Positions 5,836 through 24,195 of a stretch of 32,000 nucleotides of DNA are shown piece by piece. The DNA lies in NCBI GenBank assembly GCA_963698035.1, contig OY969114.1, positions 600,001 to 632,000 of the forward strand, given 5' to 3'. This stretch comes from Candidatus Saccharimonadota bacterium. GTDB taxonomy: Archaea > Micrarchaeota > Micrarchaeia > Micrarchaeales > Micrarchaeaceae. The notes beneath the pieces were generated by a model that was not told the origin of the DNA, ran no database searches, and saw nothing but the letters and a program-made list of their open reading frames with translations. The position numbers and the translations under genes were made by a program. Position 1 is the stretch's first letter. Every line of letters begins with the position of its first letter.

Positions 5836-5933
5836 TGCAGGGAGGGAGATTTGTTCACTGCTTTTGAACTCCCGCAGGCCTAAGCCAACGGATCTTGAGT
5901 CCGCCGCGTTTGACCAAGCTCCGCCATCCCTGC
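5836..5933 (-). tRNA. tRNA-Leu(CAA) with a ~13-nt insert (putative intron) inside the T-loop
   Basis: Reverse complement, read by hand: acceptor GCAGGGA/TCCCTGC plus discriminator A; D-arm GCG-AGCTTGGTCAAA-CGC with A14 and G18G19; anticodon stem GCGGA/TCCGT; loop CTCAAGA (U33, anticodon CAA, G37). The long variable arm is GGC-TTAG-GCC. The T-stem is GGGAG/CTCCC, and its loop reads TTCAA[AAGCAGTGAACAA]AT. Total length is 98 nt (85 nt without the insert). No CCA is encoded. Confidence 0.85.
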
Positions 5934-23350: not shown

Positions 23351-23444
23351 TAGCTCCACCCAGATTCGAACTGGGGTTCCCAGGTCCAGAGCCTGGTGTC
23401 CTTTTTTGGTTGCTTTTGCGCAATGACCACTAGACGATGGAGCT
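23351..23444 (-). tRNA. tRNA-Gln(CUG) with a ~21-nt insert (putative intron) in the D-loop
   Basis: Reverse complement: acceptor AGCTCCA/TGGAGCT plus A; D-stem GTCT/GGAC enclosing a 30-nt loop AGTGGTCATTGCGCAAAAGCAACCAAAAAA (a normal loop is 8-11 nt). Anticodon stem CCAGG/CCTGG; loop CTCTGGA (anticodon CTG); T-arm CCCAG-TTCGAAT-CTGGG. Total length 94 nt. Confidence 0.85.
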
Positions 23445-23467
23445 AAACAATAGTATTGAGGGAACCT

Positions 23468-23478
23468 ATTTTATATTT
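23468..23478. promoter_or_regulatory. TATA-like box (ATTTTATATTT) between tRNA-Gln and the M50 protease gene
   Basis: It is centred at about 23473, which is 29 nt from tRNA +1 (23444, minus) and 21 nt from ATG 23494 (plus). It is the only AT-rich element in the 49-nt spacer. Confidence 0.4.
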
Positions 23479-23493
23479 GTTGCGTAAAATCCT

Positions 23494-24195
23494 ATGATGA
23501 TGCGCGAGAATACCTTCCTCATGCAGGAGATAAGGGACATAGTGATTGCAGATGCAGTACTGATACTTGCCATGACGCTCGTCCTCTGCGGGGGCATTTT
23601 CAGCATAACGAGTAACCCCTCGAGCTTCGTGCGGAGCTTCGTATATTACATCCCTATAGTCGCGGTGGCTGCTACCCTTGTCTTCGTTCTGCACGAGCTG
23701 ATGCACAAGTTCGTGGCGCAGCACTACGGTGCTATAGCGGGGTTCAAGACGAACACGATGGGCCTGATGATCACGCTGATCACAGGCGCCTGCGGCTTCC
23801 TCCTAGGAATACCCGGCGCCACCATGATATATGCACACTCGTTTGACAAGAGGCAGAACGGGCTCGTCTCGCTGGCAGGTCCGCTCACCAACTTCGCGAT
23901 CTTTGGCGCGTGCCTCGCAATCTTTTTCGTGCTCGCGCCTGCATCCACCTCATATCTTTACACGGCGCTCTCCCTCACCCTATTCATAAGCATACTGCTT
24001 GCATTCTTCAACATGCTTCCCATATTCCCGCTCGACGGGAGCAAGGTGCTCGCCTGGAACAAGCCAATCTACTTTGGCACGATTTGCATCATATTCGTGC
24101 TGATGATGCTCTTCACCCCCATCCCTATATACGTCATCATACTGATGGTGATTGTGGCTCTCTTCTTCTCGTTATTCTACAGGAGGGCGTTCTGA
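23494..24195 (+). CDS. Site-2 protease family (M50) intramembrane zinc metalloprotease, minimal form
   Basis: HExxH motif in a TM helix (LHELMHKF), a second motif FFNMLPIFPLDGSKV (NxxPxxxLDG), and multiple TM helices. No PDZ or CBS insert is visible. Confidence 0.85.
   Translation: MMMRENTFLMQEIRDIVIADAVLILAMTLVLCGGIFSITSNPSSFVRSFVYYIPIVAVAATLVFVLHELMHKFVAQHYGAIAGFKTNTMGLMITLITGACGFLLGIPGATMIYAHSFDKRQNGLVSLAGPLTNFAIFGACLAIFFVLAPASTSYLYTALSLTLFISILLAFFNMLPIFPLDGSKVLAWNKPIYFGTICIIFVLMMLFTPIPIYVIILMVIVALFFSLFYRRAF

Follow-up and report, generated by a model that had tools for sequence, protein, structure and literature searches.

A Micrarchaeota genome carries a 94-nt gene for tRNA-Gln(CUG) on the minus strand of the window (the whole 32,000-nt stretch of DNA that was analysed), at positions 23351-23444, and in all likelihood this is a functional gene in whose D-loop a protein-spliced BHB intron separates C20a from A20b. 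Three observations support the reading of the insert as a BHB-type tRNA intron: the spliced product is matched by intronless orthologues, the motif has been maintained through compensatory changes, and a search of the genome found no further gene for this tRNA. The epsilon2-type endonuclease EndA very probably removes the 21-nt intron.

Gene anatomy and surroundings

All 21 stem pairs of the cloverleaf are standard (acceptor 7 bp including A1-U72, D 4 bp, anticodon 5 bp, T 5 bp), the T-loop is canonical, the anticodon is CUG and the D-loop measures 30 nt, exactly as the original prediction had described this gene. Without the insert, the molecule is an archaeal tRNA-Gln(CUG) that retains G18-G19, and the locus is orthologous to intact tRNA-Gln(CUG) genes by both sequence and synteny. 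The full gene folds with a z-score of -3.4 against shuffles. Its parts, together with its upstream element and a second interrupted tRNA gene of the window, are as follows.

23425..23444, minus strand: 5' exon, 20 nt, tRNA positions 1-20a, identical to intronless orthologues; acceptor 5' strand with A1, D-stem 5' strand and G18-G19
23427..23430, minus strand: 5' strand of the central BHB helix (G15, U16, G18, G19), pairing with 23406-23409
23404..23424, minus strand: 21-nt D-loop intron at 20a/20b, placed by register scan, shuffle test, covariation and its single copy in the genome
23351..23403, minus strand: 3' exon, 53 nt, A20b to discriminator A73, identical to intronless orthologues; D-stem 3' strand, anticodon arm (CUG), 4-nt variable loop, T-arm and acceptor 3' strand (U72), with CCA not encoded
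23469..23483, minus strand: TATA-box-like element ATATAAAA, recognised by sequence, 25-32 nt upstream of the gene
5836..5933, minus strand: tRNA-Leu(CAA) with a 13-nt T-loop intron, given as context outside the tRNA-Gln gene

Its neighbours are a divergent M50 protease gene on one side and a TrkA-N gene on the other. The TATA-like element and a purine-rich, BRE-like stretch upstream of it both fall within the 49-bp gap shared with the protease gene, and orthologous tRNA-Gln loci have a comparable TATAAA motif at a comparable distance; the element is a putative promoter of the tRNA gene. Within the interval 23445-23500, the AT-rich element at 23469-23477 resembles a TATA box whichever strand is read, and the promoter may therefore be bidirectional. 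The protease gene itself starts with three consecutive ATGs. A scan for bacterial promoters and terminators is of no value for an archaeon; the terminator it called is the anticodon arm in reverse complement.

Standard annotation overlooks this gene. On the window, neither ARAGORN nor Rfam at its gathering threshold reported it, and a genome-wide cmsearch scored the 3' part alone, at 22.9 bits and under the cut-off. Intron-aware prediction, which had been proposed as a means of confirming the gene, did not recover it either: ARAGORN with intron search and relaxed scores made a sole call at the site, a false one with a 371-nt intron. A self-splicing group I or II intron is ruled out, since the insert is 21 nt long and has no Rfam match, and the core of such introns needs hundreds of bases.

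The splice motif and its register

Excision of 21 nt yields a 73-nt tRNA that matches the intronless genes of three genomes of the same genus (G001, G002 and G004) base for base, which bears out the expectation that removing about 21 nt would leave a tRNA of this length; four further intronless genes of the genus differ from it at 2-3 positions. The exons of the three loci are identical despite 50-nt flanks that are merely 40-70% identical, and the M50 protease and TrkA neighbours are common to loci with and without the intron.

A scan of five placements of the 21-nt excision indicates where the junctions lie. The 20a/20b placement alone sets both cuts two bases 3' of a shared 4-bp central helix, on opposite strands, with a 3-nt bulge, a 4-bp inner helix, and G15-U16-G18-G19 paired with CCAA. 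Placements at 19/20, 20/20a, 20b/21 and 21/22 were rejected, with one of four central pairs each. The cut originally given as an example, after the A at 20b/21, is among these: it gives the right product, but the motif is absent there and fits one base earlier. When the 21 intron bases were shuffled, the motif arose in 4.5e-5 of trials, or 2.7e-4 with any of the five placements allowed. Read 5' to 3', the intron consists of a first base in the 5' bulge, the UUGC/GCAA inner helix closed by a 6-nt loop, CCAA, and the AA of the 3' bulge. The helix TTGC/GCAA that had been noted at the outset is the inner helix h'; its proposed extension by GGT/ACC fails, as the two share one A and cannot form jointly, and the central helix at the splice site is instead the one between G15-U16-G18-G19 and CCAA.

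The motif is relaxed rather than strict hBHBh' (perfect central helix, helices flanking both 3-nt bulges), because G15 lies opposite an A, leaving three Watson-Crick pairs in the central helix, and A14 faces A21 on the 3'-site side. The position of G15 forms G-U or G-C in 16 of 24 orthologues, and the mismatch with A is common to the other 8; all four central pairs are present in 14 of the 24, against three of four in this genome. A generic BHB scan that rewards a flanking exon helix left the true D-loop junctions of both tRNA-Gln and tRNA-Leu(UAA) unranked, a failure which indicates that the 3' side is loose.

These orthologues derive from 28 distinct D-loop inserts in Micrarchaeota-like records, of which 24 fit 20a/20b, two 20b/21 and two 21/22. 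In the alignment of the 24, the intron ends are conserved and the loop is free in length and sequence. The 20a/20b register pairs in 94% of cells, compared with 27-60% in slid controls, and all four inner-helix pairs have changed on both sides (13 cells), a level of covariation reached in 0 of 500 shuffles; as the sequences are related and were selected for their fit to 20a/20b, these counts support the helix and are not independent tests.

A different choice of junctions has to be weighed, for a single A has two possible partners: intron base 2, which gives the 21-nt intron, and U20, which gives a 19-nt intron. In this slipped register (UGGU/ACCA, 5' cut after A20b), the product would be a 75-nt tRNA with two extra A's and an 11-nt D-loop. 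In this genome the slipped register is the better textbook BHB. Both registers may be cut in vivo, or epsilon2 may pick the weaker one by recognising features outside the local motif, such as the mature tRNA body. This is improbable; if true, the gene would exemplify, in nature, a choice between alternative tRNA splice sites, or an archaeal endonuclease that selects its site with guidance from the tRNA body. Splicing mainly in the slipped register is a good deal less probable still. In its favour, all four pairs of its central helix form in this genome, next to a 3-nt bulge; the model rates it as more stable by 0.8 kcal/mol (-34.4 versus -33.6); it is the minimum free energy (MFE) fold; and it pairs as highly across the alignment overall (94.6%). 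However, the base in alignment column 42 can pair with intron base 2 in every one of the 24 orthologues, with covariation from U-A to C-G, and with U20 in only 18 of them; A20 in six orthologues breaks the slipped helix; and in the intronless genes among the matches listed for the order, G19 and A21 are always three bases apart, counting the bases in between. Given this spacing, the 75-nt product has no natural counterpart among them, and spacing and column-42 covariation together identify the 21-nt register as the conserved one. Folding had been suggested as a route to a BHB motif; the unconstrained MFE fold, which took the slipped register, also mispairs the anticodon and T arms and was set aside for junction placement. 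Some mis-splicing is conceivable.

It is hardly credible that the insert is kept and that the tRNA functions at its full 94 nt, with an additional hairpin protruding from the D-loop. The insert would make a compact hairpin, but it sequesters G18-G19, which are needed for the D/T elbow of tRNA. Moreover, conservation follows splice-motif geometry, down to the two bases before each cut, with a freely varying loop, and an enzyme able to cut is present. In favor of retention, D-loop introns of Methanopyrus kandleri outlast canonical ones in precursor reads (PMC3695527).

Distribution, need for the gene and intron history

Among the 160 genomes of the order that match the tRNA-Gln search pattern, 40 carry an insert at the same D-loop site: 35 of 80 in this family, 5 of 79 in the other large family and 0 of 1 in a third. 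The complete genome of Ca. Micrarchaeum sp. A_DKE has it, and genomes of the family carry an intron identical to the one in A_DKE. From this identity and from an endonuclease that matches the ARMAN-2 enzyme, the host would belong to Micrarchaeota, most likely to Micrarchaeaceae, but outside the genus Micrarchaeum. In sampled records of Nitrososphaeria, Caldarchaeales and Bathyarchaeia, tRNA-Gln(CUG) has D-loop introns of unrelated sequence at 21/22; in Woesearchaeota and Aenigmarchaeota the intron site is 20a/20b or 21/22. The D-loop of this tRNA is thus a recurrent intron site in archaea.

Several side observations emerged from these records. The genes of Nitrososphaeria, Caldarchaeales and Bathyarchaeia usually combine the 21/22 intron with a canonical one (L039, L042, L046, L056, L059, L099 and others), and several introns of the 21/22 type contain the word TGGTCAGA or TGGCCAGA, a mimic of the D-loop exon. 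Two Micrarchaeota genes (L084, L104) have C for U at T-loop position 55. Four records titled Methanothrix or Marsarchaeota (L065, L040, L043, L091) hold a tRNA-Gln gene of the Micrarchaeota type, suggesting that these bins are mislabelled or contaminated. A single-contig relative (G079) has two copies of the 5' part of tRNA-Gln(CUG), at C1:411592 and 412976, 1.4 kb apart, possibly marking an integration site.

The genome appears to depend on the interrupted gene. Its long ORFs contain 4479 CAG codons versus 1200 CAA, making CAG the major Gln codon. A search of the genome (one contig, 777 kb, 95% complete) for a second tRNA-Gln(CUG) gene, a CUG-anticodon arm, an exon copy, a split half or an intron copy found none; the original prediction had held that a second intact gene would suggest that this copy is defunct. 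That the locus is a pseudogene or assembly error, with CAG read by the intact tRNA-Gln(UUG) at C1:370082-370154, would agree with its being missed by standard finders, but is highly implausible and already largely refuted by conservation across relatives: the exons are unchanged relative to three congeners although the flanks have drifted, and the insert recurs at the same site in the 40 genomes and in A_DKE.

The history of the intron is less certain. A GatE tree of 30 genomes, chosen to include mixed genera and not at random, requires eight changes of intron presence or absence, six of them forced by well-supported branches. It places this genome as sister to its seven intronless congeners (99/95), and an intron-bearing member of g34 is likewise basal in its genus. 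This pattern, combined with near-identical intron ends across the family, fits a single early origin: the family may have had the intron from early on, with several precise losses since then, one of them in the sister branch with the seven congeners. Unlike the GatE tree, an EndA tree nests this genome weakly among the intronless congeners, a disagreement under which a re-gain in this genome is conceivable.

The endonuclease, the proposed splicing route and its significance

The genome has a single EndA gene (C1:397643-398800, 386 aa), whose product aligns end to end with the ARMAN-2 epsilon2 enzyme (PDB 4FZ2, E 8e-166) and has the features of that class: one chain of about 390 aa with three units and a middle catalytic domain. 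PF01974 matches strongly at 205-289 and weakly at the C terminus. The catalytic triad and the ASL lysine are in place: K160, Y235, H250 and K281 correspond to K161, Y236, H251 and K282 of ARMAN-2 and are invariant in 30 relatives. In ARMAN-2 EndA, the triad Y236, H251 and K282 and the ASL lysine K161 are reported to matter (PMC3488258). Genes for RtcB, archease, GatD and GatE are present, intact and open.

The broad-range endonuclease that had been postulated from the insert is therefore encoded, its architecture being epsilon2, and further non-canonical introns occur in at least six other tRNA genes of the genome: in the T-loop of Leu(CAA), Arg(UCG), Arg(CCU), Ala(GGC), Pro(GGG) and Ser(GGA), and in the D-loop of Leu(UAA). 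The insert in tRNA-Leu(CAA) makes the tRNA-Gln intron the second non-canonical position in the window, as stated at the outset, and this gene is a predicted second substrate of the same enzyme.

These other genes merit brief description. The tRNA-Leu(CAA) intron has a 4-bp central helix and nearly no inner helix, like the ARMAN-2 59/60 hBH type, and ARAGORN missed the gene. The tRNA-Leu(UAA) gene of this genome (G000, C1:360552-360660, minus strand) has a 20-nt D-loop intron with the inner helix UGGC/GCCA, which resembles that of the A_DKE tRNA-Gln intron; one intron family may possibly be common to both isotypes. The T-loop introns of tRNA-Arg(UCG) (G000, C1:324754-324860, plus strand) and tRNA-Ala(GGC) (G000, C1:135145-135250, plus strand), 31 and 30 nt long, are near-identical in sequence, suggesting that an intron has moved from one tRNA gene to another. 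Two pattern searches of the whole genome did not find tRNA-Arg(CCG); its gene may be missing or may carry more extensive interruptions. As has been reported for ARMAN, tRNA-Ile(UAU) is present and Ile(CAU) is not.

The available data are best explained by a model in which the precursor is transcribed from the upstream TATA box and trimmed at both ends. The D-arm would then fold into the D-stem, A14 opposite A21, the helix of G15-U16-G18-G19 with CCAA, the bulge U20-C20a-A, and the UUGC-GCAA helix. The 5' bulge would be well formed and the 3' side weak, the 3' site lying in an A-rich strand (AA|A) within a loose bulge or internal loop. An EndA homodimer would cut after the second base of each bulge, and RtcB, with the help of archease, would join the exons into the 73-nt tRNA; cleavage and ligation are predicted here from the presence of the enzymes. 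Subsequently, CCA would be added, the tRNA charged with Glu and amidated by GatDE, in keeping with its A1-U72 pair, and the mature tRNA would read CAG.

Both this class of intron and the epsilon2 enzyme are already published for this lineage, and the tRNA-Gln(CUG) intron is ordinary within it. A 2003 study by Marck and Grosjean is reportedly a source on D-loop introns of archaeal tRNAs. Non-canonical sites in archaea include D-loop positions 20/21 and 22/23 (Yoshihisa 2014, PMC4090602), and tRNA-Glu D-loop introns of M. kandleri have been seen in precursors (PMC3695527). Such introns are likewise short and bounded by a BHB-like motif in which exon bases of the D-loop supply the central helix, but they belong to other phyla with enzyme types other than epsilon2. 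Closer to hand is ARMAN-2 (Ca. Micrarchaeum acidiphilum), which we infer to be of the same lineage and for which non-canonical BHB introns and the epsilon2 EndA are described (Fujishima 2011, PMC3239211; Hirata 2012, PMC3488258; PMC12397907). There, 56% of tRNA genes are reported as disrupted, and in vitro both strict and relaxed motifs are cleaved by epsilon2 (PMC3239211); the substrates described for these assays, a strict motif at 37/38 and an hBH motif at 59/60, both lie outside the D-loop. The main text gives T-loop examples at 53/54 and 59/60 and mentions neither tRNA-Gln nor 20a/20b, the D-loop site seen here. A literature search of main texts found no paper naming a tRNA-Gln(CUG) intron at 20a/20b. 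In Asgard archaea, D-arm intervening sequences are missed by tRNAscan-SE, and D-arm inserts are the usual misses of annotators (bioRxiv 10.64898/2026.10.13.758758). The blind spot, an insert of about 21 nt that enlarges the D-loop, is the same, as is the use of compact relatives for the test, but the Asgard genes have several introns each and repeated gains, whereas tRNA-Gln here has one intron and a pattern more like repeated loss.

These findings fit the accepted picture of co-evolution between tRNA genes and EndA and leave it unchanged, and their importance is modest. For annotation, they imply that this genome, and probably many of its relatives, would appear to be without tRNA-Gln(CUG), because ARAGORN and Rfam miss the gene. 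Gene pairs that differ by the 21-nt intron alone, at one site and in several genera, are well suited to questions of precise loss or gain. Additionally, as the cultured Ca. Micrarchaeum sp. A_DKE has the same intron, D-loop splicing by epsilon2 and its choice of register are directly testable in this lineage.
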